This document shows positions 25,101 through 59,209 of a DNA stretch of 64,000 nucleotides, in pieces. The stretch covers positions 15,624,001-15,688,000 of the forward strand of contig NC_134025.1 in assembly GCF_964204645.1 (NCBI RefSeq), given 5' to 3'. The DNA is from Tubulanus polymorphus. Its lineage: Eukaryota > Animalia > Nemertea. The notes beneath the pieces were generated by a model. That model was not told the origin of the DNA, searched no databases, and was given only the letters and a program-made list of their open reading frames with translations. How positions within the stretch are numbered: position 1 is the first letter of the stretch; each line of letters begins with the position of its first letter. A program made the position numbers and the translations under genes.

Positions 25101-27217
25101 GAACATTTAACTGTAGATGATAGTTATTTAAGTGAATACCAGAAGAAAATAAAACCGAAAGATCATGTTTTTACAGAAAAATTAATACCTAATCAAAATA
25201 ATAAATACAATTATATTGTTCATTATAGAATGTTAACATTTTATCTAAAACAAGGAATGAAATTAAAGAAAGTACATAGATATATTGAATTTAATCAATC
25301 GAAGTGGTTAGAAAAATATATAGATTTCAATACTCAGCAGAGAACCATATCAAAAACAGATTTTGAAAAAGATTTCTTCAAATTAATGAATAATAGTTTT
25401 TATGGTAAAACATGTGAAAATATTAGAAATAGAAATGATATTGAATTAGTAAATAATTCTGAAAGATTAAGACATTTACAATCAAGTCCTAGATATTTAG
25501 GAAATAAAAGATTTGAAGATTATTTAACAGCAGTTTAATTAAAAAGAACGTCAATGAAATTTAATAAACCTATATTCATTGGTTCAACTGTTTTAGAAGT
25601 ATCAAAATTATTAATGTATGATTTTTATTATAATGTTTTACAACCACTTTTTGGGGAAAAGCATATTGAAATATTATATTTTGATTCTGTAACAGCTGAC
25701 ACCCCAATATTATTAAAATGTAATGATAAAATATTGATAAGAAGAATTTCAGAAATAATTCCAAAACAAAATGAATGTTATATTTCATATGGAGAAAAAG
25801 AATTAATACAAATAAATGGTTTAATGGACAAGAAATGGATGGAAAAAATTAAAGAATATTATTAGGCATAAAACAAATAAGAAAATCTATAGAGTTAGAA
25901 CTAAATTAGGATTTGTAGATGTTACAGAAGATCATAGTTTAATTAAACGAAATGGTGATGAAATAAAACCAACTGATATAAAAATTGGAGATGAATTATT
26001 ACATAAAAGATTTTTCCAAAGAATGAATCATATGTCATTTGATGAAATAATTGATAATATTTATAATATAGAACCCGAAACATTAGAAGAAAAAGAATAT
26101 TTTATCAAAGGATTTTTCATGGGTGATGGTTCAGCAGGTGTGTATAATTATGTTTGGGGTAATAAATATTGTTGGTATTATTGAATAAAGTTGGTTGTTT
26201 ATGCAATCAAGACTTGAAATTATTAGAAAGAATTAAGAAATTCTGTGAAGAAGTTTATTCACATAAAACATTCAAAATCATAGATGTTATGAAATCATCG
26301 CAATGTTATAGAATGCATGTGAATAATCCTAAAGATTTTGCTATAAAATATAATGACAAATTCTATATTCATGCAATAGTGTAAGTAATACTTCAACTAA
26401 AGAAAAGATAGTTCCAGATTATGTATTAAAAGCAAAAAATAATTTAAGAAAATGGTTCTTCATTGGATTCTACGCAGCCGATGGTACTAAAAGTTTCAAA
26501 AACCGCAAAACAATATCTTTAGCTCAAAAAGGAAAAGTTGCTATATCAGGATTAAATATATTATGCAATTCATTAGGCTTTAATATGAATATTGGATTGA
26601 TTAAATCTAAACCAAATTGCTTTAATTTAAGCCATGTAGAAAATGAGTTAACTGAAGAAGTTAAAGATTTATTTGAAATATATAACCCAACAGATTATGT
26701 TTATGATTTATCAACTGAAGATGGTACATTTAACTGTGGATTTCCATTAATAGCAGTCAATACTGACGCCTACATACTAAAAATCAAGACAAATGACATA
26801 ACAAAAGACTTAAAAACATTAAAACATCATTTTGATTTTAGCAATTATCCCAAAGATCATGAACTATTTAGCAATGATAATAAAAAGATTCCTGGTAAGT
26901 TTAAAGATGAATTAGGGGGTGATGAAATGATTGAATTTGTTGGGATAAGAAGTAAAATGTATAGTTACAGAACAAAAGATCATGAAGCTAAAAAGTTAAA
27001 AGGAATAACAAAACATGTGGTTGATAAACATATAGAATTTCAAGATTATATAAAGTGTTTATATAAATCAATTGTAATGAAACACAAAATGAATTGTTTA
27101 AGATCAGAAGATCATGAGATGTACATTAATGAAGTTGAAAAAACTAGTTTAAATCCATTTGATGATAAAAGGCATATTTTAGATGATGGTATAAAAACAT
27201 TACCTTATGGTCATTAA
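22146..27217 (+). pseudogene. polB: Protein-primed family B DNA polymerase (ZnF, putative TP, vOTU-like, exonuclease with EndoVII-like insert, polymerase) interrupted by an intein
   Basis: DNKCFLWSI/HYMW (OTU-like), [48 protein letters not shown]-[intein]-TD, PGKFKDE; nonsense codon at 25536. Confidence 0.92.
25686..26761 (+). mobile_element. Intein with a LAGLIDADG homing endonuclease (PolB motif-C site), frameshifted
   Basis: Block A SVTADTP; block B VDVTEDHSL (~25915-25941); blocks C/E FIKGFFMGDGS (26101) and FFIGFYAADGT (~26456); block F YVYDLSTEDGTF; C-terminal IAVN with +1 Thr; absent from the homologous site at 46498/46499. Confidence 0.93.
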
Positions 27218-27272
27218 AACATAAAATCAATATCATCATAATCGAAATCACTATTGGCTTCTTCATTTTCAT

Positions 27273-28060
27273 TTAATTGTTCAGGTTCTTCTTCCATTCC
27301 ATTTTCTCATTTAAATAAAGTTCTATCTTGTTCCACATTTCATCTCGCTCTCTTTGTTTCTTTTTGTTTGTTAATTCATCAAATGGAATTATAATATCTA
27401 TGTTTAAATAATTTACAATCTTATTTAAAAAGAATTCATAATTAATTGAATCTGTTATTCTATTTTCCAAATGATACATTAATATTTGTGTAAATATTTT
27501 TTTTATATTTTCCATATCTTCTTCTGTTAATTTAGGTTTTTCATGATAATCGTTAAATAATAAATATAAATACCTTTTCTTTTGTTTTGTGTTAAATTTT
27601 GACGGAATAATTGTTTTTATAATATCTTTTTTAGTTATTTCACCATTTTTATTTTCTATTATTTTCATTTTTTCAAGCCATTGCTTATATTCTGGTGTAT
27701 GATCTTCTATAGAAAATATTTTAAAAATTTCATCAAGATAATTTAATTTTGGTTCTATGAGAAAATCTCTAGTTTTTTCTTCACCCAATACATTCTTTTG
27801 CCATCCACATTCATTACAAAATAACACAGTACCTTCTTGTCTAAAAGGTCGCATAACTAAATTGTGGACATTTTCGTTTATAATTTATTGGTAATAGATC
27901 TTCATTTAGCTCCTGGTATTTTCTTACGTTTTCTTTATGTTTTATTGTTCTATTATGTAGATTTGAATTACATGTTGTAATAATCAATTTACAATATTTA
28001 CAATAATATGTTTTTCTTGTTAATTCGTTATATTGTTTTTCTAACTTTTCAACTGTTTCA
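27273..28060 (-). pseudogene. Poxvirus/NCLDV late transcription factor VLTF3 (A2)-like protein with N-terminal zinc finger and zinc ribbon
   Basis: CPQ(F)...CNECG zinc ribbon across a frameshift at ~27850; C-terminal PKLTEEDMENIKKIFTQI...INYEFFLNKI...KKKQRERDEMWNKI resembles the VLTF3 pattern. Confidence 0.6.
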
Positions 28061-28161
28061 AATCATTGTTTTCTCGCGTTATTTTGGTTTTGTCGTTTTG
28101 TCGTAATGTCGCCCTCATTTGCATATTCGTGTTTTTTTTATCTTATCAGCCACCATACTAA

Positions 28162-40100: not shown

Positions 40101-40574
40101 CCTGACAAATGACATACACATTAATCCAAAATATACCGCAAATCAATTGTGACAAAGTATTGATGCGAATGACCTATTTAATTCATCGACCATGTACCGA
40201 ACACTTTTATTGTGCCCCAGCATTTGGGGTCATTCTACTTGAACCCCAACATGCAATATGTCCACCAGATTCTGGTGATGATAAAGTCATTTTAATTTTT
40301 CTGCCGATATCTCAATATATCGATGTAACTAGGAAGACCTTATTTAAAATGTCGTGATTTTTATGTCGACTATTTGCGATATTGTCTCAATAAATTGCCA
40401 TACGTATCACGACATTTTAGCTAAAGGAGTGATAATTATGTCGACGGTACGTGGTTATGTTGAGATACAGACGTCGACATTGGTGAAAGGCGTGATCCGT
40501 ATAATGATTTATCGTGATATTAACACGATATATCGACTTAATTATGTCGATAAATCGCGATATATCACGTTTGT

Positions 40575-41590
40575 ACGGAAGCGATAAAGGGCCTCGAGTT
40601 GTCGCGTTCCAACTCGACAAGTCGCCATATTTATGTCGATATATCGCGATATATCGCGTCAAGTCGACATAAATATGTCGACATATCGTGACGTTTTCAC
40701 GACAAATTTCGCTTTTTCGCCCATTTTCCACGGGACAAGCCGTCATTTGAAGACATGTCTAAATGTAAGATGAGGACGCCAGTGATATGACGACTGAGTT
40801 TCAAGTCGTCATGAATATGTCGACTTGTCGCGAGGAAAATGGTCGAGAAAGCGAAATATGTCGTCAAAACGTCACGATATAGCGACATATTCATGTCGAC
40901 TTGACGCGATATATCGCGGTACGTCGACATAAATATGGCGACTTGTCGAGTTGGAACGCGACAACTCGAGGCCCTTTATCGCTTCCGTACGTTTGTTCGA
41001 CATAATTTCGTCGTGATAAAAGGTCGCGACGGTTTTGTACGGGTCCCATATATACGGAAGTACGTAAGCGATAAAGGGCCTCGAGTTGTCGCGTTCCAAC
41101 TCGACAAAGTCGCCATATTTATGTCGACATATCGCGTTATTGGCTTCAAGTCGACATGAATATATCGACATATTGTGACGTTTTGACGACATATTTCGTT
41201 TTCGCAACAATTCGACATATTCATGACGACTTGAAACTCAGTCGCCATATTACTGGCACTCCTCATCTTACATTTCGACGTGCCTTCAAATGACGGCTTG
41301 TCCCGTGGAAAATGGGCGAAAAAGCAAAATTTTTCGTGAAAACGTCACGATATGTCGACATATTCATGTCGACTTGACGCGATATATCGCGATATGTCGA
41401 CATAAATATAGCGACTTGTCGAGTTGGAACGCGACAACTCGAGGCCCTTTATCGCTTTTGACATATAAGCTTCCGTACATCTTTAGAAAAAGAAATAATA
41501 TGTGATCTTTCATACGGAAGCGATAAGGGGCCTCGAGATGTCGCGTCGACAAGTCGATGCAGATACGTCGACTTGTTTTGACGTCGCGAA
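40575..41590. mobile_element. Cluster of CpG/GTCGAC-rich palindromic MITEs
   Basis: Units bounded by TACGGAAGCGATAA...TTATCGCTTCCGTA (40575-40989, ~41053-41477, partial at 41512). Confidence 0.75.
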
Positions 41591-42236: not shown

Positions 42237-42369
42237 GTGAGTATCCATGCCCACCACCTTCCCGTACACAGTAGGCTACGCCTATACTAAGTCTTGTATT
42301 GTGCTCGTCAGAAAAAAAAAGATTCCGGCTACTACAATCACAGGGGCTCGTATCATAAGTTTGGGGGTG

Positions 42370-42778
42370 AGTAATAGGGGTAATGGGCTTTCAAATCAAA
42401 GGTCGAACGGTCGAGCTTATTAAAAACAAAACATTAAAAGTAATTTAAAACTATAATATATTTTCATAACCGTGTGCATTTTATATTATAACTAAATATT
42501 TATTCTAAGATATTAATAATTCAAATTTTAAAAGCATATTGTATTAAATCAATTGGTCGCTCCGCTTCGCTACCGCTCCACTCCGCGACCGATTGATTTA
42601 TTTACAATACACAAATTCATATAATCAAATATATTTTAATAATAATAATTATTCTATTATTCAACTGAAATGCACACGGTTTTGAAAATATATTATAGTT
42701 TTAAATTACTTTTAATATTTGTTTTTAATGAACTCGACCATTCAACCTTTAACCTGAAAGCCCATTACCCCTATTACT
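42370..42778. repeat. Left terminal imperfect palindrome (409-nt hairpin)
   Basis: AGTAATAGGGGTAATGGGCTTTCA...TGAAAGCCCATTACCCCTATTACT; apex AATTGGTCGC-loop-GCGACCGATT at ~42551-42594. Confidence 0.92.
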
Positions 42779-43010
42779 CTTAAAATAATCATATACATGA
42801 ATAACATTTAAATTGACAGATTATTCAATATAAAAGTGTAAGCTCTTATAGAATAGATATATAGATATATTTACAACATTATTTCAATATTCATATTTGT
42901 ATGAGTTAGATTTTTAAACATTAAAAGTGTCAGTAAAGTGTGATTGAAATAATTCATATATAAATCATTGAACTTCTAAAATCAATTAAAAAAAAAAAAT
43001 TAGTATTAAA
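42779..43010. repeat. Left subterminal inverted repeat (pairs with 60275-60495)
   Basis: For example, TAAATCATTGAACTTCTAAAATCAATT and its reverse complement at ~60299-60325; the repeat runs almost to the ATG of both terminal genes. Confidence 0.88.
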
Positions 43011-46000
43011 ATGGAAGCAAATAAGTACTACTGTCCAACATGTAATATCAATATACATAAATCCCAAAAATCAAGACACAATAAAACTAAAATACATTTA
43101 GAGAATAAATTGAAATTAGAATATAAGGATGATATATTAGAAACTAAATTAGAAGAATTAAAGAATGAAAAAGAAACATATAAATGTGATACATGTAATC
43201 AATCATTCAGTGATAAAAGATATTATAAAGAACATTTAAAATCTAAAAGTCATATTGGAAATATGAACAATGATATTTTAGGTGAGGATTATTTTGATAA
43301 AGATAATGATAAGAAACAGAAGACAATTAAAAGCATAAAAAATAAATTAAACAATAGAAGACCATACATGGAAGATGTAAGAAAATATATTAATTTATTG
43401 GATAATAAAAAAGATATAGAGACAACCGAAGCATTTAAAAGTGATATTGGTCCAGCAGCTATTGAGTTTAAATTTCATAAAGGAAAAACATTAGAAGAAA
43501 ATAAAAAACATTTAGAAAATATGAAAGAAATAATAAAAATAATAACTGATGTTGAATATCCTAAAATAAGTATTTCATCAAAAGTTAAATTCATAAAATC
43601 TGAAGATAAACCAATATATAATATAAATTCTCATTCACAACATATTATTTCAAAACAATATATAGATGATAACTTAGATAAATGTTATAATGAAGTAAAA
43701 ACTAAAATAGAAGAGAAATATTTTGATGGATCTGGTTTAATATTTGATGAAATAATATTTATGACTTTACATGTTTATAACACAAAATATAATAAGTTAA
43801 CTAAATCAAAACCAATTGATGAAAATAATGTATCATATTATAAAGAACCAGATATTGAAGCATCAAGTAATATTAAACTACCATTTAAAACTAATGCTGT
43901 AATAAATGGTCAAAATTTTGATGATAAATGTTTTCTATGGGCTATAATAAGTTGTTTACATCCTGCAATTTATAATATTTGTAGATTAACTCATTATAAA
44001 CCATTTGAAAATAATTATAAGATAGATAAGTATCCTGTTAGAATTAAAAACGTCCCAAAGATAGAAAGAGATAATAATTTAAGAATAAATGATTGATTTA
44101 ATCAAATTACCAAATACAAAAGGTAACAACATAAAACATTATACATTAGAACCTTTATACCTATCAAAAGATTATGATTCAAATGATGTTATAGATATAC
44201 TATATTATGCGAATCATTATATGTGGATTAAACAAATCGATTTATTTTTTAAATCAGAAAATGATCACCATAAAATATATCTTTGTAGAAAATGTTTACA
44301 TAGATTCAGTAATGAAAGTACATTATTAAATCATAAACAATTATGTGAAAATCATGATTATTGTAAATTAGTTTTACCAAATGAAAAGGATAAAATATTA
44401 GAATTCAAAAAATATGATTACAAAAATAAAGTACCATTTGTAATATATGGAGATTTTGAATCATTAAATAAAGAATTAACTGATCAAGATAGAAAAGAAA
44501 TATATTATAAAAGAAAAAAATTAAATTCTAATGAAAATGATTTTTCAGATGAACCACCAATAACAAATACAATTAAAAAGATCAGCTGCTGCTTTCGGGT
44601 TATATATTAAATCTGATTATCCAGAACTAATTGAAAGTGAATATTATAATTACAGAAATGAAAATGTTATCAATCATTTTTGTGACTTATTAATTGAATA
44701 TGAAATAGGATTTAGTAAATTATTGAATACAAATATAGAAATTATAATGACAGAAGAAGATAAAGAAGAATTTGCGTTTGCAGATAAATGTTATTATTGT
44801 GAAAAGATATTTAATTATAAAGATAAAAAAGTAAGAGACCATGATCATTTGAATGGAAAGTTTAGAGGCGCTGCACATGAGAATTGTAACTTACAAGCTA
44901 AGAAAATCAATTTTGTACCAGTTATATTTCATAATCTATCAGGATATGATGCACATTTATTTATCAAACAGTTATGTCATAAAATAGAAGAAATTAATAA
45001 TGAAATAGAAAGATTAAATTCAAATAGATCAAAAGATAAAATACCAACTCATAAATTTAGACTGTTAGCTAAAACATCTGAGAATTATATATCATTCCAA
45101 TTTGAGTGTTTAAGATTTATAGATTCATATAGATTTTTAAATAGTTCATTAGATAACTTATCAAAATCATTAGTTGATGATGAATTAAAAATATTAAAAC
45201 AACACTACCCAAATAATGATGATTTTCAATTAATGAGATATAAAGGAGCAATTCCATATTCTTTCTATAAAAATCATAATGATTTTAACATAACTGAATT
45301 ATTGAAAGAACAATTCTATGATGAATTAAAAAATGAATATGTTAAAGATGAAGTATATAATAGAACATTGAATATTTGGAATCATTTCAAAATAGAAAAT
45401 CATGGGCAATTAGTAGATTTATATTTAAAATCAGATGTATTATTATTAACCGATATATTCGAAAGGTTTAGAGATGTAAACCTAAAATATTTCAATATTG
45501 ATCCTTGTCATTGTTATTCTAGCCCAGGTTTAACATGGGATTGTGGATTAAAATTAACAGATATAAAAATGGATTTGTTAACAAATATAGATCAATTATT
45601 ATTATTTGAAAAATCTATAAGAGGAGGAGTTTCAGGTGTATTAGGTGATAGATATTTCAATGTAAATGATAACCCTGGATATAAGTTATTATATATAGAT
45701 GCAAATAATTTGTATGGTTGGGCAATGATGGAACCACAACCTTATGGAGTATTTGAATTAACTGAAGTTTTACAGAATGAAAATAATGATACATTTGATT
45801 GGAAGAAAAGAATCCTAGATATTGCAGATGATTCAGATACTGGTTACTTCTTTCTTGTAGATTTAGAATATCCTGAACATATTAAATTTAAATCTAGAAA
45901 TCTAGCATACTGTCCAGAACATAAAACTGTTACTCATGAAGAATTATCAAATTATCAAAAAAGAATTAAACCCGAAAATCTTATTCATACAGAAAAGTTA

Positions 46001-47104
46001 ATGGTAACTCAAGAAGATAAATATACTTATGTAGTACATTATAGAATGTTAAAGTTTTATCTAAAACAAGGAATGGTTCTAAAAAAAGTACATAGATATA
46101 TTTCATTTAGTCAATCTAAGTGGTTAGAAAAATATATAGATTTTAACACCAAACAGAGAACTGAAGCTAAAACTGATTTCGAGAAAGATTTCTTCAAGTT
46201 AATGAATAATGCATTCTATGGTAAGACTTGTGAAAATATTAGTTATAATGATATTGAGTTAGTTAGTAATGGTAAAAGAATTAGACATTTACAAGTATAT
46301 CCTAAGTTCATTGGTAACAGAATATTTGATGAAAATTTAGCCGCAGTTAAAATGAGAAGAACATCCATGAAATTTAATAAACCAATCTATGTTGGCGCTT
46401 CAGTTTTAGAATTATCAAAATTACTAATGTATGAATTCTATTATAATGTATTACAACCACTTTTTGGAGAAATACATATAGAAATATTATATTTTGATAC
46501 AGATGCTTACATATTAAAGATAAAAACTAATAACATAACTGATGATTTAAAAACATTAAAACATCATTTTGATTTCAGTAACTATCCTAGAAATCATGAA
46601 TTGTTTAGCAATGATAATAAAAAAGTTCCCGGTAAATTCAAAGATGAATTAGGTGGTGAAGAAATGATTGAATTCATCGGTATTAGATCTAAAATGTATT
46701 CATATAAAACTTAAGAACATGAAGCTAAAAAGTTAAAAGGAATAACCAAAAGTGTAGTAGAAAAGAATATTAATTTCAAAGATTACATCAATTGTATATT
46801 CAATGAAGAAGTTAGAAAACATAAGATGAAATGTTTAAGATCTGAAGATCATGAAATGTTTATTGAAGAAATTGAAAAGATAAGTCTAAACCCATTTGAT
46901 GGTAAAAGATATATTTTAGATGATGGAATTCATACAGTTGCTTATGGTTGCAATTTAGATGAATACTTAAAATTTAAAAGAGAAGAAACAAAAGAGAACG
47001 AGATAATGAAAAGAATTCTAACGTGTTCATCAAATTTTAATAAAAATATGTATTATAAATGGAGAGTAAACAAACACACAGTGAGAACAATAAATCATTT
47101 CTAG
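43011..47104 (+). pseudogene. polB: Protein-primed family B DNA polymerase, intein-free allele (frameshifts at ~44090 and ~44580, stop at 46712)
   Basis: ZnF; DDKCFLWAI; IYGDFES; [19 protein letters not shown]; YIDANNLYG; [10 protein letters not shown]; uninterrupted YFDTD. Confidence 0.93.
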
Positions 47105-47412
47105 ATAGAATAAAAGATACTTCAAATGTCAAATCAGTAGATTATAAATTTAAGAAGTTAAAAGAATTAATAATCCATAAGAAATATCTAATTACAAATA
47201 TTGATACAGTAACTAACAAATATGGAGATAAATTAGTTATACACGTAGAATATGAAGGATTAAAAGGAAATACATATAAATTCAGAACATATTTACCGGA
47301 TAGATTTCATAGATTATCAAGTGAAGACTTAGAAGAATTATGTTCTGGTTGTTTCTATTTCGTATACAAAGGTAAGAATGAAAAAGGGCACCATGAAATA
47401 GATTTCGAATAA
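47059..47412 (+). CDS. Small Polinton protein, possible OB-fold ssDNA-binding protein
   Basis: FKKLKEL...Y.I...VTNKYG...TYLPDRF pattern directly downstream of polB. Confidence 0.5.
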   Translation: MESKQTHSENNKSFLDRIKDTSNVKSVDYKFKKLKELIIHKKYLITNIDTVTNKYGDKLVIHVEYEGLKGNTYKFRTYLPDRFHRLSSEDLEELCSGCFYFVYKGKNEKGHHEIDFE

Positions 47413-47429
47413 GAAAATATGTAAAATAA

Positions 47430-48188
47430 ATGGTAGAATTAAAAGAATACAGAATATTTGTAGATTCTAGAAAACTTACAAATTATAAATCTCATAATTT
47501 ACTAGTTCAATTAGATAGAGAATTCAAGAATTGTGTAGATTTAAAATTAGTTAATATAAGTTTATGTAATTCTTTTTACAATGTATTGGATAAAACTGTT
47601 GAACATAGAGTCTTTTTAATTCATGATAGAAATAAAAGTAAATGGTTTCATCTTTATCTTAAACCAGGATTATATAATTTAGATACATTAGCGCAGGAAA
47701 TTAATAGAAGAGCTCGGTTGAAAATGGGTGCATCTGCTGGATTTGGATTAAGACTGATTAAAAGTGATAGCTCCGATAAAATAAGAATGAAATTAGGTAA
47801 TGAAGATCAACATCAATTTCTAGTTAGAAAACCTTTAGCTAAAATTTTAGGAATAACCCCAGATGTAAGGATACGCAATGCTGATGCTCCACCAAATATA
47901 ATGCCTTTTACACACTTTTATATTTATTGCAAATTAATCGATCCTACAAAAACATTCGAAGCAACTAAAGATATAACTTGTAATTCTGGTTTAATTAACA
48001 TTTTACCATTGAAGAATGTTAAAGAATTTGGAACGCAAATAAATTATAATTTAACAGAATGTGATTTCAAACCATGCATTCCTCGTTTTAATAATTTTAA
48101 ATTAGAAATTAGAAATCACAATGGATACTTAATTGATTTAAATAATTTCCCTGTAATTTATGAATTAGTTATAAGATGTAGAGAGTAA
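47430..48188 (+). CDS. Minor capsid protein (penton, single jelly-roll)
   Basis: IFVDSR...VQLDRE...LVNISLCNSFYNV, LKPGLY, FYIYCKLI, LEIRNHNGYLIDLN...YELVI. Confidence 0.75.
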   Translation: MVELKEYRIFVDSRKLTNYKSHNLLVQLDREFKNCVDLKLVNISLCNSFYNVLDKTVEHRVFLIHDRNKSKWFHLYLKPGLYNLDTLAQEINRRARLKMGASAGFGLRLIKSDSSDKIRMKLGNEDQHQFLVRKPLAKILGITPDVRIRNADAPPNIMPFTHFYIYCKLIDPTKTFEATKDITCNSGLINILPLKNVKEFGTQINYNLTECDFKPCIPRFNNFKLEIRNHNGYLIDLNNFPVIYELVIRCRE

Positions 48189-48205
48189 TTTTTTTCACTA
48201 TATAA

Positions 48206-48550
48206 ATGAATATAACTGTTGGACCGAGTATATGTTTTGGTTTTGATTTTAAACATGGCAAAGAAATGAGAATTAAACTAAATGATGTAATTACTGATAT
48301 AAAAAGTAAATCATTTAACAATTCATCAATGATTAATAAAGAAAATTATAATAAAGAAAAAGTAATTGATTTAATTAAATCACCTTTAGAATATTATGAT
48401 TTAAATGAAGATGGAATTATCGATGATATTAAAAACATATTATCCAAAATATATGATAATCATAAAAGTAGTAATGAAATAAATGTTGAATTAATCATCA
48501 CTAAGATAACTAAATATTTTGATGATAGTAATTTTTTGATAAATAAATGA
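48206..48550 (+). CDS. Hypothetical Polinton protein
   Basis: Intact ORF preceded by the T-run/TAAATG motif. Confidence 0.6.
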   Translation: MNITVGPSICFGFDFKHGKEMRIKLNDVITDIKSKSFNNSSMINKENYNKEKVIDLIKSPLEYYDLNEDGIIDDIKNILSKIYDNHKSSNEINVELIITKITKYFDDSNFLINK

Positions 48551-48768
48551 GTGATAATAAGTGGATAATAACTGGATTATATAATGGCGCATTACTATCA
48601 GTTGGAACTGTTGGTTATTCAATGGTTTTAAAAAAAGTATTCAAAATGGGAAGTGTTAATGTTGATAGATTTGATATAAATGATATTTTAAAATCAACAT
48701 TAGCAGTTACTTTATCTAATTTAACTATTGATTATTTAGAAAAACAAAAATATATTCCTCCCATATAA
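48547..48768 (+). CDS. Small hydrophobic virion-type protein
   Basis: 73 aa, two hydrophobic helices, TAAATG start. Confidence 0.6.
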   Translation: MSDNKWIITGLYNGALLSVGTVGYSMVLKKVFKMGSVNVDRFDINDILKSTLAVTLSNLTIDYLEKQKYIPPI

Positions 48769-48792
48769 ATGTGTAATTTTTTTACTAAATAA

Positions 48793-49215
48793 ATGGCTTC
48801 TGCAATTATAACTATTATAGGATCGGCAATTGTTAACGCTTTAACATTTACTGGTGGCGGTTATTTATTTAAGCATATTGATAAAAATGGTTCATTAACA
48901 GAACAAAAAAGACATAACTTAGCATTAGAGAAATATAATAAAGCAGCAGAAGAATATAGAGGAAAGAGGCAAAACTATATGGATTACATTAATAAAGAAT
49001 TATATGATCTGAAGATTTCACATAGAGATTTTCAATCAGTTGATGATGCAATGAGTTTATATAACGCAGAAACAAATAAAGAAAAATTACATCTACATAA
49101 ACCTACAATATCAGATTATTATACCCCAAGTAATGAACAGAAGAAGTATGAAATAATTTGGATTTTAGGCGGAACTGTTATTGTTATATTTGTAGCGTAT
49201 AAGTTTACTAATTAG
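48793..49215 (+). CDS. Polinton membrane-associated protein
   Basis: MASAIITIIGSAIVNALTFTGGGYLF...EQKRHNLALE; C-terminal transmembrane segment. Confidence 0.65.
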   Translation: MASAIITIIGSAIVNALTFTGGGYLFKHIDKNGSLTEQKRHNLALEKYNKAAEEYRGKRQNYMDYINKELYDLKISHRDFQSVDDAMSLYNAETNKEKLHLHKPTISDYYTPSNEQKKYEIIWILGGTVIVIFVAYKFTN

Positions 49216-49236
49216 TAATTTTTTTTTGCTAAATAA

Positions 49237-49662
49237 ATGGATGATAATATTGATATTATTCCTCATGATATAAATAAAACTGAATTAAAAACATATTTAG
49301 AAAAACAAATATTAGAATTTGAAAGTGACTTAAAAGTTAAAAAGAAAAAATATTTAAAAAGTAAAATTATATATTATTTTATTATTCGTGATTCAGTTAC
49401 AATTAGTTCTGTAATAACATTTCTAGCAATATTCAGTCCAATAACACCATTAGCTATATCAATTGGTGTATTAGGATTAAGTTCAAGTGTTTTAACCGGT
49501 ATAAGTTCAAAATTAAATATAAAAAGTAATAAAGAAAAAATTAAAACTAATATAAAAGAAATTAATAAATTAAAGAATACACTAGATTATATAATAAGTT
49601 TAAATGGTCATATAACAGTTGAAGAACAAGATATATTATTAAAAGAATTAGTTAATTATTAA
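49237..49662 (+). CDS. Two-TM coiled-coil protein
   Basis: Central hydrophobic hairpin flanked by Lys-rich coils. Confidence 0.6.
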   Translation: MDDNIDIIPHDINKTELKTYLEKQILEFESDLKVKKKKYLKSKIIYYFIIRDSVTISSVITFLAIFSPITPLAISIGVLGLSSSVLTGISSKLNIKSNKEKIKTNIKEINKLKNTLDYIISLNGHITVEEQDILLKELVNY

Positions 49663-49678
49663 TTTTTTAATTATATAA

Positions 49679-50960
49679 ATGGGGTTTCCAAAAGCTTTCC
49701 AATATAATAAATCAATTAAATATAATATTCCTGCAATAGATTTTAAGAAAAATATTACATATAGAAATGAAGTTTTAAATTCATTAATTGATTTATATAT
49801 TTATGTTACTGAAAGTAATAATTTTCACGTAAAGATGGAAAATATATTTCATGTGTATACAATTTATTTCAAAAATTTAAAATCTAATATAAAGTATTGG
49901 CAGAACCAATTAAATTTTGCTGTTTATTGCGCAACAACAGGATGTGGAATAAGTTGGAATGATCATTTAAACAAACCAAGTTTACCATTGATGGTATTAC
50001 TTTTTAGATTTCATATATATTTTCAAATAAAATTAATATTAGATGAATTAGAATGTCCTTTACCAAGTTCAAAATATTTTAAAGAATTGAATAATAATAT
50101 TAATTTTCCTAAGTTTTATAAAATATGTAATGAATTTAATATTAATTCAAATAAAGATTTTAGAGCAAAAATTGGAACAATGGGTGGATTAGGAATATTA
50201 TATACTAAAGAATTTGGAAAAATAATGACAAATTCAGATATAAGAACACTAAACTGGAATGAATTACCAAAATATTATAATAATGTACAACAACAAAATA
50301 ATAATGGTTAGGTTAATTTCATTTTAGAAAATAGTGAAGGTGTTACTGTAGCTGGTATACAAAGAATAAATCAATCTATTAGAACTTATTTGATATGTAT
50401 TTTAGGTGCGCAAGTTGAAACAAGATCCCCAATAATTGGAAATGATAACACTTCATTCGATGCGCAGAAACAATTCAAAGTATTATTTGAAGATTCAATT
50501 CATAATGATAAAAATAGATCTATTCCAGAAAACATTGTAAGATATCAAAATTATTTAGATAAATCACATATTAGATTAAATTATTGTATAGGCCCTAATC
50601 TATTAATTATTTCTAATGTATTAAAGATGGGAAATATAATTGGTTACAATAATCTAATTAAAACTGCAACAATAAATAATTCATTTGGATTAAATGATAT
50701 AAATAAAAAGATTATTACTGCTCCAAAATTAATTGAAGGTGAAAAAAATTAAAAACATATTCAATCAACAGAAACTAAAACTAATAATATTAAATTGAAT
50801 AATGATTCTAAAATAAAAGATTACAATACATCAGAAAATATTAGAACTGATAATATTCAACATGATATAATTAAACTAAATGATGATAATAAATCCCATG
50901 AAAATGCTAAATTAGCTTTAACTTGTATAGGAATTGTAATCGGAGGAATATTATATTTTA
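49679..50960 (+). pseudogene. Conserved Polinton protein (WQNQLNFAVYCATTGCG motif) interrupted by stops
   Basis: ORFs 49679-50311 and 50390-50752 are in the same frame, separated by a TAG; C-terminal transmembrane segment near 50910-50960. Confidence 0.65.
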
Positions 50961-50984
50961 AATTTTAATTTTTTTATTATTTTA

Positions 50985-52437
50985 ATGGCAGAAGGTGGAG
51001 GAGATTATGAAATGGAAAACAGGGGAAATAATGATGATGCCAATACTAACAATGATGATTATATGACTGCTGATACTAATATTGATAATGATAATGATAC
51101 AACATATAATTCTAATTTAGCAGAGAGTGGTTCTAAAGCCCCATCAACAGATGAACATGATAGAAGAACTAGATCGAGAATACCTATTGAAAATTTAGAC
51201 CAAGGTTTAGAAAGAGAAAATATAGAAAATTATGAATTTATGTATGATTTTCAACGTGTATTTAAAGATTCTGGATATAATATAAATGATAGAGGCGCCA
51301 GACGTTTAGTAAAAGAATTAAAGTTTTTAGATGGTGAATATTATTATAAATTGAAAGATGATTATTATATTAACATCTCTTAAAATTCAAGACAAAATAT
51401 TAGCAAAATCAACTTTGCTTAGGTTAGACCTATCTAAAATTAAAAGAATAAGAAATAGTAATGAACCAGAAGATGTAACACAAGAATTAATTGATAAAAA
51501 TGAAAATGTATTTAAACAAAGAATTAAAAAATTATTTGAAACAATCAAAGATAATCCAGAAGCAGAAACAACTTCCGAACAGAATAAAATTTTCAAAACT
51601 AGTAAACTTAAATCAAACACTGAAGTTCAAACTGAAAAACTTTTACCGAAGGGATTACTTGATTCAACAGATCAAGAAATAGAAGCTTTAAGTATGTTTT
51701 CTAAAAAAAACAATTAGAGAAATAATAAGTATACGAGATGAAGCTGATAAAATTGCACGCGAAGAACATATTAGATATAATAAAATTAAACCTTTAGAAA
51801 ATAAATTATTTGACACCAGAAAAGAATTAGAACAATTAAAATTAGATAGAGAATTTAAAGTTATTGAAGAAATTGAATTTAAAAAAAGAAATGCATATTT
51901 AGAAAAAGAAATTGATGATTTAGAATATAACATAGAATTTCAGAAAGAAAAAATGAAATTATTATTAAATCATATGATTATTGTATTAATAGATTAAAAG
52001 TTGTTGTTAAAGAGTTAATACTGAAACCAAATTCTGAAATATCACTAAAAGATAGAATAAAATTATTATTTAAGTTTGAAGGAATCACAATTCTTTCAAT
52101 TCTAACAGCTGTAACTATGTTATTTACAACAATTGGTTTAGCAATATCAAATTCTTTGAAATCTACTCCTACTCCCAATAAACCAGATAAACCTCCAAGC
52201 AATAATTCTATACAAGATAAAGTTAAGGATGGTTTAAAGAAATTAGCAAAATATTTATGGGAACTATCAAAGAAATCTGCTGCAGCATTACCAGGAGTTA
52301 TTGCATCAATTGTTGGTTTTATATTGAAATCTGCAGGAAACATTATTAACTTTGCTGCTGAACATATTATTTTATTTTTAATTACAGTTGTAAGTGCTAT
52401 TATTTTTGGATTAGTAAACATGATAAAAAATAAATGA
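50985..52437 (+). pseudogene. Coiled-coil protein with C-terminal amphipathic/TM helices (putative membrane-active virion protein), frameshifted
   Basis: Fragments 50985-51383, 51358-51717, ...DRIKLLFKFEGITILSILTA...LAKYLWELSKKSAAALPGVIASIVGFI. Confidence 0.6.
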
Positions 52438-52457
52438 TTAATTTTTTTGTTAAATAA

Positions 52458-53705
52458 AAGAGTGGGAGTTATATCAATCCTTCTAAGAATCATAGAATAT
52501 CTAATGCTATTAAAGCAGAAAGATCACATCATATAATTACACATAATCCTTCTAATATTAATCCTGATGAAACTTTATATGTTAGAATTCCTCGATTAAC
52601 ACAAAATACTTTTTATGTTCCAAATAGTAATTATTTATCAGCCGATATAAAAGTAATCGGTAATAATAATAATTATGTTGTTGATAATGTTGGAAGGTAT
52701 TTGATTAAAAAGTTAACAATAAAGATTGGTCCAGAAACCGTTTTCTCATTAGATGATTATAATTTATTTATGCATTATAAAGATTTATGGTTAACTAAAG
52801 AAAATAGAAATAATATGATATTTCAAGGCATCCAATCAGAAAACCAAAATAAATTAAGATCAGGAGCTAATGACGCAATAGCAACTCGCACCGCAGATAA
52901 TTTCATAAAAAAGATTTATGGAAGCAAATATAAAATTCCATTAGACTTTGAATTGATAAATAACAATGCACCTTTATATAAATATGCAATTCAAGAAGAT
53001 GTTATATTCGAAATAACATTTGTTCCTGTAAATGGAATTGTATTATCTAGCGTTGTTAAAGATATGGGTTATAAATTATCGAATATATGTTTAGAATATG
53101 ATACAGTAACTGATGAAAATATTTCAAGTATAATTCAAACTAAATACAATCAAGGATTTTCATTATTATATGATTATATTGATAAATTTAAAACTGTAAC
53201 TATTAATGCAAATGATGAAATTATTAATGAGAGTATTAACTTCCCAAGAAGATCTATTAAAGGTATATTAATATTTTTTACCATTGCAACATATACTAAT
53301 GGCGCAATAAATGTTGATAATTATTATAATCCTGAAATAACAAAAGTAGAAATAACTATCGAAGGAATAGCAAATAAAATATTTTGTCAAGGAATGAGAA
53401 TGATAGATCAGTGGCCAGAAATTAGAAAACATTTTATGAATGAAAAAGTAAAATCATCTGAAAATTGTAATATTAATCAAATTGATTATTATACCGGTAA
53501 TAAATATGCATTATGGTTAGATTTTAGAACAACAGAGGATAATTCATTACATGGTTCTGGAAAAAAATTACAAAATACAAAAGATGGAATACAATTATTC
53601 ATGACAAAGAATAAAGGAATCAAACATTTTAAAATGCATATTTATATTATATCTGACGCGCAATTAAATATTGTAAATTCTCAATTGAATAGTGTTATGT
53701 ATTAG
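52458..53705 (+). CDS. Major capsid protein (double jelly-roll); start codon apparently mutated ATG to AAG
   Basis: Open frame from 52458: SYINPSKNHR...THNPSNINPDETLYVRIPRL...VDNVGRYLIKK...YKIPLDF...YKLSNICLEYD...LWLDFRT...LHGSG. Confidence 0.8.
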   Translation, partial: KSGSYINPSKNHRISNAIKAERSHHIITHNPSNINPDETLYVRIPRLTQNTFYVPNSNYLSADIKVIGNNNNYVVDNVGRYLIKKLTIKIGPETVFSLDDYNLFMHYKDLWLTKENRNNMIFQGIQSENQNKLRSGANDAIATRTADNFIKKIYGSKYKIPLDFELINNNAPLYKYAIQEDVIFEITFVPVNGIVLSSVVKDMGYKLSNICLEYDTVTDENISSIIQTKYNQGFSLLYDYIDKFKTVTINANDEIINESINFPRRSIKGILIFFTIATYTNGAINVDNYYNPEITKVEITIEGIANKIFCQGMRMIDQWPEIRKHFMNEKVKSSENCNINQIDYYTGNKYALWLDFRTTEDNSLHGSGKKLQNTKDGIQLFMTKNKGIKHFKMHIYIISDAQLNIVNSQLNSVMY

Positions 53706-53737
53706 AATTTCAACTTTAATAAAAATTTATATAATAA

Positions 53738-54259
53738 ATGGAAGGAGGTAAAGTATATAAACATATTCCATACATCGATACACATGCAAATAATGATGGT
53801 TTATATTATGTGATACCTTGTAATATAGCTTTGATATTTGATCCTATTTTCAAAATTTATGAAACTAAACTAATAGAAATAGATAATAATAAAAGTGAAG
53901 TTGTTGATGATTTAAGTAATGTAATACCTTCTACATCTAATAATGTAATACCTACTACATCTAATAATGTAACACCTACTACATCTAATAATGTAATACC
54001 TTCTACATCTAATAATGTAATACCTTCTACATCTAATAATGAAATAATATTAAATTATGGTGAAAATAAAAATTATTGTGGATATTGTAATGGTGAATTT
54101 TCAAACGCTCCATCTAATTGGAATAAACATATGAATACAAAGGTACACATTACTAATGCGGTAGAAAGGATGAAAAAGTATAAAAATAAAACAACTATTG
54201 ACGATGATACGGTAGAGAATTTGAATAAATTGTTAGGGTCTGATAGTGAAAGTGATTAA
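53738..54259 (+). CDS. Zinc-finger protein with five 9-aa (SNNVIPSTS-type) repeats
   Basis: 27-bp tandem repeats at ~53913-54040; CGYC...HMNTKVH. Confidence 0.7.
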   Translation: MEGGKVYKHIPYIDTHANNDGLYYVIPCNIALIFDPIFKIYETKLIEIDNNKSEVVDDLSNVIPSTSNNVIPTTSNNVTPTTSNNVIPSTSNNVIPSTSNNEIILNYGENKNYCGYCNGEFSNAPSNWNKHMNTKVHITNAVERMKKYKNKTTIDDDTVENLNKLLGSDSESD

Positions 54260-54672
54260 AATATTAATTATATTTAACACAAATAATAATATTGGTGGAA
54301 AATTGTATAAAATAATAGTAAATAAAAAGGGGGTTTTAAGTATTTAAGGTATTTAAGGTATCTAATACATATCTAATACATATCTAATACAATCTAATAC
54401 ATAAAATATCTTATTTTATAAACTGATATTCATATGGAAATTGAAACCTCAGTAATAATAAATAACCTTTATTATTTTCAAACTTATTCATATATTAGTT
54501 GAAAAAATAAAAATAAATTGGTTGAAAATTGTATAAAAAATATTTATTTTAAAAAAGGGGGTTTTAAGTATTTAAGGTATCTAATAGGATATCAGGTATT
54601 AGGGTATCTAATAGGGTATCAGGTATTAGGGTATCATGTATTAGGGTATCTAATACATAGGTATATAACTAG

Positions 54673-55284
54673 TTATTTTATATATTTATATTCATATGGA
54701 AATTGTAGTCTCAGTAATAATTTTGAACCTTTATTATTCTTTAATTTATTCATATATTCATCATGTTATTCAGTAGGTATAATTTGATTTTCTTCCAATG
54801 ATTGTTGCATAGATTTTCTATCTTTGTTATAAAATAAAACTAGAAATCTAATGTTTTCTCTAAAGTCTTTAACAATTGAATTATATTTTTGATTTAAAAC
54901 CCATGTTGTAATCCCAAAATGTCTCCCAGAGAAAGCTAGATAACATAACTCACTTTCTCTAACTTTTGAATCATGTAAATTTGCGCAATCATCTATGATA
55001 AATAATGTAGTTGATCCTTTATAAGTATCAATTGCTATTTTTATACAATTATCTAAATTTTCTTTTACTGTTTTAGGATTTAATATAATAAACTTTTTTA
55101 TCTTAACTATATCTCTATTATATGTTTTATTCATTTCATAAGTAGGACAAAATAATATTATATTATTAAAATGATTCTTATAAATAGTTTCTAACAAGTC
55201 TAATATGAAATGTGTTTTACCACAATTGGTTACTCCAGTAACTTACATATTATGCGGTTCAAATATAAATAAATCTTTATTCAT
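54673..55284 (-). pseudogene. A32/FtsK-like DNA packaging ATPase
   Basis: Walker A GVTNCGKT, Walker B FIIDD, GRH, NQKY; in-frame stops just before Walker A and at 54766. Confidence 0.88.
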
Positions 55285-56376
55285 TTATTCTTTTAATTTT
55301 ACTAGATAAAATCCATTCATTAAATTTATCATCATATCCCTATATTTCACCAAAGAATACTTTTTTACTTTAAGAGTTTTTGTTTTCAATACTTTTTCTA
55401 TTTTGTATTCTATTTCATCTGGATTTGGTACAAGTGATAATTCTTGTTCATAGAAATATCCTAATATTTCTTCATCTTTTAGATCTTCTAGTTTATAAAC
55501 AAATGGTTTAGTTAATATTATCTTTTTAATCTTGAATATTTCTTCTGTAAAATTTGGGGTATAACCTTTATAAAATGTTTTTCTATATTTAGATATTCTA
55601 ACGTGTTGTCCAATTTTAAATTTAGGTTCTCCGAAATCATGTGTAACAAATGCTCCATATAAATTATTCCAAACTATTTCTGAATTATCTTCTTTTCTAG
55701 CTTGTATAGGTTTCATACCAATACTTGAATGTTTAGAATTATTATAACCTTTCACTAAATCATCTAACACATCGATATATTTATATGTTTCATTAGCAGT
55801 AAAATATTTCCACATTCTAGTTTTCAATGTTTTATTAAATCTTTCTATAATAGATGCTTTTTTATCTGAATGTGTTGAAAAATAATCTACATCGTTATCA
55901 GATAATAGTTTTTTAAAATGTTTGTTATAAAATTCCTTACCTTCATCAAATTGTATCTTATCTGGAATAGCTTCTTTAAATATATTCTTAAAAGCGTTTG
56001 TAACTTCTATTCCGGTTTTATTTTTGATTGGAATTGACCATGCGTATCGACTGAATATATCTATAACATTTAATATCCAGAAATATCCTTTGTTGTATTC
56101 CTCTAAGTTCTTCATGTCAATTAAATCTGCTTGCCATTGTTAATCGATATATGAAACCATAACTTTTCTTATTAAATAAGTTTTATCCATTTTCTTGTGG
56201 ATTTGATATGTTGGTTGATTTGGTAACCATGATTTCAACTCACTATATTTTATATTTTCATTATCAGATTTAATTTTACTCCATAATTCTGAAACGTTAG
56301 AATATGATACTTCACTTTCTGGGTTATAATATAACTCTCTTAAATATTGTTCTTTTTTCGTCTTATTTTAATCCAT
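55285..56376 (-). pseudogene. Retroviral-like (rve) integrase with C-terminal chromodomain
   Basis: YYNP..., WQADLIDM, IDIFSRYAW, QFDEGKEF, IERFNKTLK, HSSIGMKP, chromo YKIEKVL; two nonsense codons in the N-terminal part. Confidence 0.9.
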
Positions 56377-56735
56377 TAATAATAGTTTAGATTTAGTTTC
56401 AATGGCTTTATGATTTGACTTATTTTCTGGTATAATAGGTTTATTGTCATTGGAATCATATTTATCATCAGATTTGAATTTTGATTTATATATTACACCG
56501 GATAATATGATAATTGTTACTAATCCAATTGTAATATATAATTTATAATTACTTCCAGCATTAGAAGAATCAGATGGATTATTACTTGAATCAATATCAG
56601 CTAAAGTCTGTGATTCATTTATATCAGTTAATTTCTTTGTCTTAGCTTTTTTAATTCTGAAGATCTTTTACCTAATTCTCTTGCCCATTTAATTTGTTTC
56701 TCGGATCTAGCCTTTTTCTTAACTCCATCACTCAT
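56377..56735 (-). pseudogene. Small basic protein with a transmembrane segment, frameshifted
   Basis: MSDGVKKKARSEKQIKWARELGKRS... then YITIGLVTIIILSGVI. Confidence 0.5.
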
Positions 56736-57330
56736 TTATTTTAGTTAATTTTTGTTCTGATTCATTTTCTGTTTCACTGTTTGGTTGTAGTACATCTGTT
56801 TCGTTCTTACCTGATTTATATTCCATAGGCTTGATATTCGAAAATGTAATGACGCCAGTAGAAATTAATGTCATAACCGATCCTAATTGAAATGAAGCAT
56901 AACCAACCCATTTTTGTAATTCAGTCATAACTAAATAGTCATTTTTCAAATCACTATATAATTTATTTTCATCATTAATTGGTATTAACTGGTTACATAA
57001 CTTAGAATAACATTTGACAATACCATCTGAAATAGAATCATTTATTCTAGCTGATCTTGCTTCTTCATAAATCTTAAAATATTTTATTACTTTATCGGGT
57101 TTCATAGAGTCTAATTCTTGAAAAGTAATAATTCTATTTAAAAACTCTTTAGTTTTTCCACCGGCAATCAATAGTTCTAGATGATGCTTACAATATAAAT
57201 AGTATTCATAATCTATATTACAATTAACTTGAGCACAATTAGTTACAACTGTATCTTTATTATCACATATACCCAAATCATCTAATGTTTTTTCAATATC
57301 AATACTATTCTTATTAGTTTTCTTTGACAT
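56728..57330 (-). CDS. Conserved hypothetical Polinton protein
   Basis: Intact 200-aa ORF (LELLIAGGKTKEFL...DLKNDYLV) with the T-run/TAAATG motif. Confidence 0.65.
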   Translation of the reverse strand: MSKKTNKNSIDIEKTLDDLGICDNKDTVVTNCAQVNCNIDYEYYLYCKHHLELLIAGGKTKEFLNRIITFQELDSMKPDKVIKYFKIYEEARSARINDSISDGIVKCYSKLCNQLIPINDENKLYSDLKNDYLVMTELQKWVGYASFQLGSVMTLISTGVITFSNIKPMEYKSGKNETDVLQPNSETENESEQKLTKINE

Positions 57331-57631
57331 TTATATTAGAAAAAAAAGCAAAGAAGATATTATAAGTATTCTTCAAATGATACTAGCTAGTTAAAGCTAA
57401 AGAATTCTAGTATTGACTACTGATACTAGCTATTTGAATTTAAAGAATTTCTATTTGAATCTATTCAAAATATAAAGTATTCTCTTTTTGAAAAGAAAAT
57501 ATTAAAAATATAATAGAATTCACTAGCAGTTGAAGTTATTGTTTTTTTAATATATTTTATTTGAATTCTATTTGATATCTCACTACTTTTGTTTATCTAT
57601 TAGGAGCAGTAATTATAACTGTCCAGATAAG

Positions 57632-57847
57632 TCATTTCGGATCCTTGATATCAAATTCCTCAACGTATTGTTCATTATTTGGATCATTGTTCCATTGATC
57701 AATAAATTTCTTTGCATTTGTTAACTGTTCTAAATATAACTGTAAATCTAGTTTATTAGATTTGATTTGATTTTCTTTCTTTTCAAGAGGTCTTAAATTT
57801 TTCAAATTCCAAACAAGTTTTTTATTGTATTCATCATTCCTTTCCAT
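57632..57847 (-). pseudogene. Truncated duplicate of the HNH protein C-terminus
   Basis: YNKKLVWNLKNLRPLEKKENQIKSNKLDLQLYL is nearly identical to the end of 59621-60274. Confidence 0.8.
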
Positions 57848-58052
57848 TTATAAATCAAATTTTTATTAAAATTGATTAACATTTTAGAATCCTCTTCCAT
57901 TTCTTCGACTAACGTCATCCTTTTTCATTCCTCGCTGCTTTTTATGTCATTTCGGATCCTCGATAATAAATCCTCAACTGAAAATCAATTCAACGAAACG
58001 ACTGGTGGAAATATTATTTCATAAACACATATATTTATTATGTAAATTTTAG

Positions 58053-58385
58053 CGATCGATAATAGAACAATGGAGAACAATAGAAAAGCGGTCCAATCGG
58101 ACCGGTTATTGCGCAATACACAGTTATATTTTTATTCTGTAAACTACAGCATTCAAACATAGAAATGTAACCAATCAATATTGAGCAGCTGTTTCCGTCA
58201 ACAACGATCAATAATAGAACAATGGAGAACAATAGAAATGCGGCTAATCGGACCGGTTATTGCGCAATACTTAGTTAACAGTAAACAATCAATACAGAAC
58301 AACCGCCGCCATTAACAACGATCAATAATAGAACAATGGAGAACAATAGAAAAGCGGTTCAATCGGACCGGTTATTGCGCAATAC
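58053..58385. promoter_or_regulatory. Three ~66-bp direct repeats with Sox-like (AACAAT) and C/EBP-like (ATTGCGCAAT) motifs
   Basis: Units at 58053, 58205, 58319. Confidence 0.55.
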
Positions 58386-58480
58386 TTAGTCAACAGTAAA
58401 CAATACAATATTAAAACAGATATATACAATCGGGATTACATTTTTGATATCTATATTACAAAGACCTTCAGTGTTATAAT

Positions 58481-59209
58481 TTATAATTTTGTCCAGAATT
58501 CTTTAATCACTGGATTGTTTCCAATAATTTCTTCAATTTCTGGTAAATATCTGACTACTTCACTAAATGCTAATCCTAATATTTTGAATTTTTCATATTT
58601 TATTAATCTACCTACTCTTCTCAGTTTTCTTTCAAAGCCGGCACTGATATCTATGTTCTTTTTAACCCACAGCCCCCAAGAAATCCCCTCATTTTCTTTA
58701 TCAAACATTGAAAACCCTATATTTAGATAACCCCCGAAAATGATGTGGTCCCATAGGTGATTTGCTTTTCTATTTAATATGGTTTTATAACTTTTTTTTA
58801 AGATATCAGTAATTTCAGCAAATGAAATAACTTCTACACTTTGTATTTCCAGAAAGTTTAAATGATCTGTGTCAATGATTAATTTAGATTTTAAAAACTC
58901 GTTCAACTCTTCTCCACTCATTTTCTTAGTTTTCGATTCTTTGAGTCCCAACAGCAATTTAAGTCGCATTGCTGGTAATTTTGGTAATTGTAGTTCGCGC
59001 GGTAATTGTTTATTATGTATTACATCACTCAAAATTTTCACCATTTCTTGATGATAGTCCAAATGTTCTTGTAATTTTTGTGAAGTTTGTTCGTCAATTA
59101 CGAGAGTTTTATCCTCCATTTCTATTGATTCCTGTGTTTCACTATCCATCGTTTCTGGTTCCTCTTCCGATGGTTGACTTGGAATTTCTGGTTGTTCTCT
59201 GTATTCCAT
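58481..59209 (-). CDS. Hypothetical protein (242 aa, acidic N-terminus)
   Basis: Intact ORF inside the Polinton. Confidence 0.65.
   Translation of the reverse strand: MEYREQPEIPSQPSEEEPETMDSETQESIEMEDKTLVIDEQTSQKLQEHLDYHQEMVKILSDVIHNKQLPRELQLPKLPAMRLKLLLGLKESKTKKMSGEELNEFLKSKLIIDTDHLNFLEIQSVEVISFAEITDILKKSYKTILNRKANHLWDHIIFGGYLNIGFSMFDKENEGISWGLWVKKNIDISAGFERKLRRVGRLIKYEKFKILGLAFSEVVRYLPEIEEIIGNNPVIKEFWTKL

Follow-up and report, generated by a model that had tools for sequence, protein, structure and literature searches.

The element and its insertion site

The window analysed here is a 64,000-nucleotide stretch of the genome of the nemertean Tubulanus polymorphus (contig NC_134025.1, positions 15,624,001 to 15,688,000). 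It contains an 18,314-bp Polinton/Maverick copy at 42370-60683, 5'-AGT...ACT-3', in which several genes are broken. By composition the element is an AT-rich stretch with a hairpin at its left tip. A 6-bp target-site duplication, GGGGTG, is found on the + strand at 42364-42369 and again at 60684-60689. The element interrupts a host palindromic repeat, the left piece of which lies at 42339-42369 and the right piece at 60690-60766. When the flanks are rejoined they form a perfect palindrome of ~108 bp with CA...TG ends and an 8-bp duplication of its own. This host palindrome, which we take to be a P-element-like MITE, is carried uninterrupted in contigs of runs X2 and X3. The boundaries of the Polinton are thus fixed both by the duplicated GGGGTG and by the flanks rejoining into a perfect host palindrome.

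The terminal inverted repeats with AG...CT ends and the 6-bp duplication are those of a Polinton. A simple (AGT)2 or (AG)3 end repeat, described in the available excerpts of PMC8097293 as a common Polinton trait and not a strict criterion, is absent. All four arm tips read AGTAAT, with no variant there among the best 40 of 46 rows of variants listed from the X5 reads. Repeats, duplication and gene content bear out the first-pass annotation, which had taken 42370-42778 for the left end of a Polinton, and the whole of 42370-60683 is a Polinton with a variant end structure.

A family of short fold-back host repeats with arms of 100-200 nt flanks the element on both sides (40573-41457 and 62137-62908). 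At 22100-28150 there is part of another Polinton, truncated and belonging to a related family; it has a 1,130-aa frame and 71-81% DNA identity in the polymerase region, and no ends of it are seen in the window. At 13228-21267, a perfect inverted duplication of 2,108 nt contains two reverse-transcriptase frames in head-to-head order, and tandem copies of 804 nt come after it; this arrangement is possibly a fold-back rearrangement or an assembly feature.

Genes of the element

The gene for a protein-primed family B polymerase (pPolB), a Polinton hallmark recognized here by PF03175 (E 3e-15), occupies 43011-47104 on the + strand; PF02945 (E 3e-5) also matches within it. In the window copy it is split into four frames (43011-44096, 44089-44610, 44564-46714 and 46715-47104), which together encode two zinc fingers, a terminal-protein-like domain, a vOTU-like Cys/His domain, an endonuclease-VII-like insert (about 44750-44896) and the polymerase. 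Over the first frame, identity to the unbroken homologues P0121-P0123 is 57-66%. [quoted passage not shown]

The first frame is modelled with the topology of a terminal protein, and Ser241 lies beside glycines in the priming loop, which connects helix 2 to the last strand. Its best matches in a fold search are Y-family little-finger domains (Z 8.2, rmsd 2.7, 104 aligned), a Z score barely above the level that the tool calls common. This topology is described in excerpts of a preprint (bioRxiv 10.1101/2024.03.18.585575), and a Y-family little-finger fold is what has been proposed for Polinton terminal proteins. Protein priming therefore looks retained, as judged from the predicted topology with its Ser241 and from the little-finger folds. 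Nuclease inserts are known in Polinton polymerases, according to excerpts of 10.1101/2023.08.22.554363. A link between the endonuclease insert and the hairpin ends was considered, and is weakened by a relative, L144, that has the insert but no hairpin end. Directly after the polymerase gene, a small ORF at 47059-47412 looks β-rich and matches no Pfam or PHROGs family; a single-strand binding role for it is a guess.

At the other end, directly inside the right repeat, lies an open gene of 217 aa on the - strand (59621-60274) that encodes an HNH or endonuclease-VII-like protein of the His-Me finger type (PHROG 1035, E 2e-16; "endonuclease VII" is the annotation label of that family, and HNH genes are common passengers). 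Residues D147, H148, N171 and N180 are invariant in 33 sequences. The protein is modelled with a pLDDT of 92, and its best folds are Cas9 HNH domains, a weak match at E 0.012; Foldseek returned nothing for the model at E 0.001 or better. The protein is a candidate end-processing nuclease. A second, partial copy of the C-terminal part of the gene, 67% identical, is present at 57662-57862.

Between these two genes the element carries, as Polintons do, a packaging ATPase, a probable jelly-roll capsid gene and a retroviral-type integrase. The A32-type packaging ATPase (54766-55242, - strand; PF04665, E 1e-10) is interrupted by a stop in the window copy, and a stop has likewise split off the upstream part of the integrase core (rve; 55285-56139, - strand; PF00665, E 8e-9). 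The probable jelly-roll capsid gene lies at 52458-53705 on the + strand. It has 924 homologues. Its capsid identity comes from Atlas neighbours (0.97), on 10-29% of whose members Capsid_N or DJR families occur, with no sequence match in the PDB; capsid searches of viral contigs found nothing. An adenain-type maturation protease was sought in the window copy and gave no Pfam match in 21 frames and no motif or tblastn match. HUH proteins of the Rep/NS1 type had no match in Pfam (19 element frames among the 21) or in PHROGs (11 frames), and several small ORFs lie outside the assigned families.

Two terminal hairpins

The left end of the element is a 409-nt palindrome (42370-42778). Its first 24 nt recur inverted at 42755-42778 without a mismatch, as had been noticed from the letters alone. 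The outer stem joins 42370-42481 to 42668-42778 in 111 pairs with 9 mismatches and 2 gaps. An apical stem of ~20 bp (about 42540-42559 with 42586-42605) closes on a GC-rich loop of 26 nt (42560-42585), which contains the apex named in the first-pass annotation. That annotation had called the whole segment an imperfect palindrome with a GC-rich apex; as a description this is loose for the AT-rich middle, where ~60 nt on each side are poorly paired. The folding energy of the single strand of 409 nt is -111.2 kcal/mol, compared with -29.0 +/- 4.0 in shuffled sequences (z -20.4), and none of 100 shuffles folds as well, so the fold-back passes the folding check that had been proposed for it. The first and last bases pair with a probability of 0.875, and the 3' end of the bottom strand is thus able to fold back flush and facing the genome, as had also been claimed.

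The right end, overlooked at first reading, is a flush hairpin as well. It is a 188-nt palindrome (60496-60683, z -18.8), the arms of which (60496-60583 and 60596-60683) are 91% complementary, and right-type arms appear as loose ends in the reads. The outer ~55 nt are common to the two hairpins, including arm-specific mismatches at positions 28, 35 and 47; the right centre is different and shorter. A terminal 19-mer occurs four times in the window, once per arm, where 0.01 occurrences are expected. At each end the 3'-terminal strand folds ~6 kcal/mol better than the other strand. A search of Rfam gave no match at E 0.1.

The two loops (42560-42585 and 60582-60595) are G-rich on the 3'-terminal strand and have short motifs in common with the same polarity. 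Repeats of 5 nt make up the left loop, which carries GCGAAGC on the 3'-terminal strand. GCGAAGC forms a very stable mini-hairpin, but 64% of reads depart from it at one letter.

Beyond both hairpins the inverted repeat continues for ~230 nt, with 200 of 259 columns matching between the sides. The left inner part (42779-43013, + strand) runs up to the ATG of the polymerase gene and the right inner part (60272-60495, - strand) up to the ATG of the HNH-like gene. As it reaches the start codon of the adjoining gene on either side, the inner repeat may be the promoter of the polymerase on the left and of the HNH-like gene on the right.

The hairpins across the family

Reads from an independent source were examined at the element ends. 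Run X5 consists of raw Illumina reads of 150 nt with the same species label, from another study and individual, ~12% of which was read; run X1, which gave only scraps, was left out. In X5 the left hairpin, apex included, has a depth of about 1,300-1,580 and the start of the polymerase gene one of 930-1,640, compared with 20-25 for the flank. The hairpin is thus covered evenly at ~60x the flank, which is a minimum for the number of copies if the flank, too, is repeated. As many as 1,847 reads leave the element exactly at 42370 into unlike flanks (agreement 0.33). Four other rows of loose ends lie where the left and right arms diverge and resemble the right-end arms of the window. The element is therefore a multi-copy family with dozens of copies in the genome. 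Even depth and tip joins to unlike flanks show that the left hairpin, inner arm included, is family-wide and very unlikely to be an artefact.

Neither of the two refutations offered with the original claim applies: the family has the inner arm, and an origin of the hairpin in assembly or sequencing is now hardly credible. Palindromes do arise as artefacts and the evidence here is from short reads, but the imperfections of the arms follow a pattern, the target duplication is exact and so is the split in the host MITE, and the whole hairpin, with its arms, apex and junctions, is spanned by independent raw reads. A reading of the hairpin as a solo MITE was rejected as well, because its depth equals that of the polymerase gene and joins of the inner arm to flanks are not prominent.

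Orientation of the hairpins can be read from the same data. Hairpin transfer of the AAV type inverts the palindrome at each round, leaving half of the ends flip and half flop. No such 50:50 mixture is seen in X5, where the copies are integrated ones. Joins of the inner arm to flanks are absent from the best 6 rows of joins listed (the smallest with 287 reads; 154 more rows), which places them at ~13% or less provided that the rows are ranked by reads. Nor is there a change at the arm-specific positions 42404, 42416, 42744 and 42732 among the best 40 of 46 variant rows listed, where the lowest listed share is 19%. A single orientation is dominant among integrated copies. The lack of a 50:50 mixture argues against AAV-type hairpin transfer; an integrase that selects one orientation could also explain it. 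The first-pass annotation had suggested rolling-hairpin-like replication or a special integrase substrate. A plain rolling hairpin of the parvovirus/AAV type is not supported for an element with no 50:50 flip/flop in its reads, no Rep/HUH protein found and a terminal-protein fold that keeps its Ser. No free, hairpin-closed or head-to-head form is among the 15 joints listed in either read alignment (with 11 and 66 more).

Relatives of the element

Among 83 related loci (L101-L183) screened for fold-backs, most end before the element termini. Only L129 and L144 show a terminus, and neither has a fold-back there; the hairpin end is therefore not general. L129 has a strong 59-nt hairpin (L129:134-192) ~130 nt inside an ordinary Polinton terminus, and AT-rich internal hairpins occur in L104, L105, L107 and L108. 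A hairpin in L174 was discarded because it holds a telomere-like host repeat. A 15-mer scan of viral contigs gave 100 stretches, of which the 80 listed were each a single match, and none matched the ends over more than 17 nt. A degenerate arm motif gave 5 matches, none with inverted repeats. Three matches in prokaryote genome bins lie on short contigs and were set aside.

A distant relative, L103, with a polymerase 34-36% identical, carries one 184-nt palindrome (L103:4657-4840, z -13.5). On one side of it lies a zinc-binding gene of the right-end type, on the other an intact pPolB gene. The Polinton-type motif AGTAGT is present at both inner edges of this palindrome, the centre of which is a direct duplication of a unit of two small hairpins. 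The L103 palindrome may be a circle or an end-to-end junction. It bears on the idea that the palindromes act as duplex DNA, as a cruciform or recombination site, the element leaving as a circle with one palindrome or being cut from concatemers. Such a circle is possible because the palindromes make the arms at 42370 and 60496 direct repeats, and L103 looks as the junction would look; two nucleases of junction or nick type are candidates for the cutting. Against this, L103 is a single contig and maybe just another gene order, and the X5 reads have no dominant junction sequence before 42370. The left and right centres also stay different across the family, which would not be so had they passed through a circle with one palindrome.

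Mirrored variation in the two arms

Variation in the reads is mirrored between the arms. The outer stem has 102 Watson-Crick pairs, in which variants occur at 6 outer and 8 inner positions (best 40 of 46 variant rows listed). Five of the 6 varying outer positions coincide with inner ones as compensating pairs (hypergeometric P 4e-6; unphased, as the reads are of 150 nt). The pairs, with outer and inner variant shares, are 42380/42768 (23/32%), 42385/42763 (38/36%), 42446/42703 (22/29%), 42473/42676 (20/23%) and 42477/42672 (44/73%), the first two of which include right-end reads. Reads that fit two places number 202 of 8,536. At 42418, 42591 and 42682, where the window copy mispairs, 98-99.6% of reads have the pairing letter. 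From this joint change of the arms between copies it is likely that the hairpins form, and also likely that part of the element's copying is primed by them; templated copying from arm to arm would give the same mirrored changes without selection.

The mismatches that remain are biased by strand. Among the 17 arm mismatches in the two stems of the window copy, 10 read as G·T on the 3'-terminal strand and a single one as G·T on the other, while 6 are of other kinds (P 0.012). Three of the 10 are the same positions (28, 35 and 47) at both ends, and if each shared position is entered only once, the bias becomes 7 to 1 (P about 0.07, calculated by hand). The contrary G·T is private to the window copy, as is another one, located in the apical stem beyond the columns that were counted. 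Selection for tolerated pairs and strand-biased C deamination both fit this bias, and each points to a 3'-terminal strand that is single and folded at some stage. A duplex cruciform folds both strands and predicts no strand bias; with this added to the evidence from the reads, a duplex site is unlikely.

The palindromes could also be passive relics of an accidental ancestral fold-back duplication of an end, tolerated since then, with the arms kept similar by occasional arm-to-arm copying. Fold-back accidents are given as an alternative in excerpts of a preprint on Halocafeteria elements (bioRxiv 10.64898/2026.07.28.741278), the middle of the left hairpin pairs poorly and has indels in the reads, and L129 and L144, relatives with visible ends, lack the hairpin. 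A relic would hardly be kept at both ends, flush to the base and with different centres. Nor does it account for two loops that are G-rich with the same polarity, or for three mismatches that keep one polarity at the two ends although the pairs next to them change jointly. A relic is accordingly rated as improbable, more so than a duplex site.

A model for copying of the ends

The palindromes are the family-wide tips of the element's terminal repeats, at which the 3'-terminal strand likely folds and its 3' end likely primes synthesis, while the terminal protein likely still primes the 5' ends. We infer this self-priming by the folded 3' end, and likewise every enzymatic step of a cycle that combines it with protein priming and is resolved with the orientation kept. 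The combined cycle is the preferred reading, held at a little below an even chance. The evidence for it consists of the flush fold-back at both ends, its presence across the family, the mirrored arm changes, the G·T bias on the 3' strand, the terminal-protein fold and the HNH-like gene inside the right end. An intact terminal-protein fold, as modelled, would on the other hand make hairpin priming unnecessary.

Strand displacement primed by the terminal protein would free a single strand. The freed 3' palindrome would then snap back, and its extension into the genome by the polymerase would produce either a hairpin-closed duplex or a head-to-head junction. A cut at the junction on the side of the new strand, by the HNH-like protein, the endonuclease insert of the polymerase or the integrase, would be followed by refilling of the 5' palindrome through protein priming, to yield an open end in the same orientation. 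The integrase would finally insert the element at the outer AGT tip. Fixed differences between outer and inner arm may tell the enzymes which arm is which, like the bubble at the left end of MVM. A more specific version, which would be new to science, has the HNH nuclease reading the fixed G·T mismatches and opening the closed end in one orientation, with the terminal protein priming one strand and the 3' hairpin the other; this is tentative and, taken in full, doubtful.

The folded 3' strand might instead be a structured template that is recognized, protected or packaged, all synthesis starting from the terminal protein as in Streptomyces. The retained terminal-protein fold and a G·T bias that points to the 3' strand suit such a template, and the single orientation follows from it directly. 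Streptomyces telomeres, as described in excerpts of PMC4513846, pair proteins at the 5' ends with 3' strands that fold over about 300 nt. But with its 3' end flush on a stem of 100 bp, the strand conceals the tip of the template and offers a ready primer, fold-back extension occurred in vitro in the same telomere paper, and neither an internal origin nor a Tap-like protein was identified in the element. Priming by protein alone on a folded template is therefore considered rather unlikely, if less so than a duplex site.

Comparison with known systems

In the standard model, Polintons replicate by pure protein priming on simple inverted repeats, from which hairpin priming is an unproven departure. 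Copying of the ends and exit from the chromosome have been modelled, and no demonstration was found in the literature consulted. The combination of a protein-primer fold with long, orientation-fixed hairpins whose arms change together offers defined DNA substrates and named candidate enzymes for these steps. The literature search, with Kapitonov and Jurka 2006 and Repbase (which may describe some) outside its scope, brought up a single account of terminal palindromes among such elements, in a 2026 preprint. The available portions of PMC11296320, 10.1101/2022.05.25.493380 and PMC10680173 contain nothing on Polinton DNA hairpins.

Animal Polintons/Mavericks of the adintovirus type, as portrayed in excerpts of PMC8097293 and PMC8502044, are alike in size, terminal inverted repeats, 6-bp duplication and AGT...ACT ends, and in having a pPolB with terminal-protein and vOTU domains, an integrase, an ATPase and a capsid gene. 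The present element differs from them in that both repeat tips are long flush palindromes and the tip is AGTAAT, not (AGT)2, and no maturation protease was found in the window copy. Neither of these vertebrate Maverick and adintovirus papers contains the stem "palindrom" or the word "hairpin".

The virophages and PLVs of Halocafeteria (bioRxiv 10.64898/2026.07.28.741278, in excerpt) have terminal palindromes, one example being 52 nt, together with mainly non-pPolB replication genes, and hairpin priming is put forward there as a proposal. As here, the palindromes lie within terminal repeats that adjoin the target duplication. Those of the nemertean element are by contrast 409 and 188 nt, imperfect and unlike at the two ends, and accompany a pPolB with a terminal-protein fold, with family-level evidence on orientation and mirrored change. 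Terminal palindromes are thereby extended from the short ones of mostly pPolB-less protist elements to a pPolB Polinton.

Streptomyces telomeres (PMC4513846, in part) similarly combine a 5' terminal protein with a 3' strand that is palindromic over a few hundred nt and folds. Theirs consists of several short palindromes with an internal origin, whereas here there is one long stem, a virus-type pPolB and integration. The hairpin telomeres of poxviruses and ASFV, from what excerpts of PMC8956199 describe, are also AT-rich and imperfect with kept mismatches, but they are covalently closed and occur as both flip and flop, in contrast to an open duplex with one dominant orientation among integrated copies.

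Parvoviruses are alike in the flush 3' fold-back that is able to prime, and in unequal left and right hairpins (the left end of MVM, PMC1185569, in excerpt; the AAV ITR). The flush 3' terminal hairpin of a rolling hairpin is present in the element, and flip/flop inversion is not seen in the joins listed for its integrated copies. The nemertean element is moreover a double-stranded, integrating one, with no Rep/NS1 HUH protein found and no 50:50 flip/flop. If the combined cycle holds, it bears on the origin of hairpin-ended DNA viruses from protein-primed ancestors, and Polintons that use it would be a living link between protein-primed and hairpin-ended viruses. At the left end of MVM a mismatch or small asymmetry distinguishes the arms and directs asymmetric resolution (PMC1185569, in excerpt), and by analogy this end would be the nearest model for a resolution that keeps orientation.
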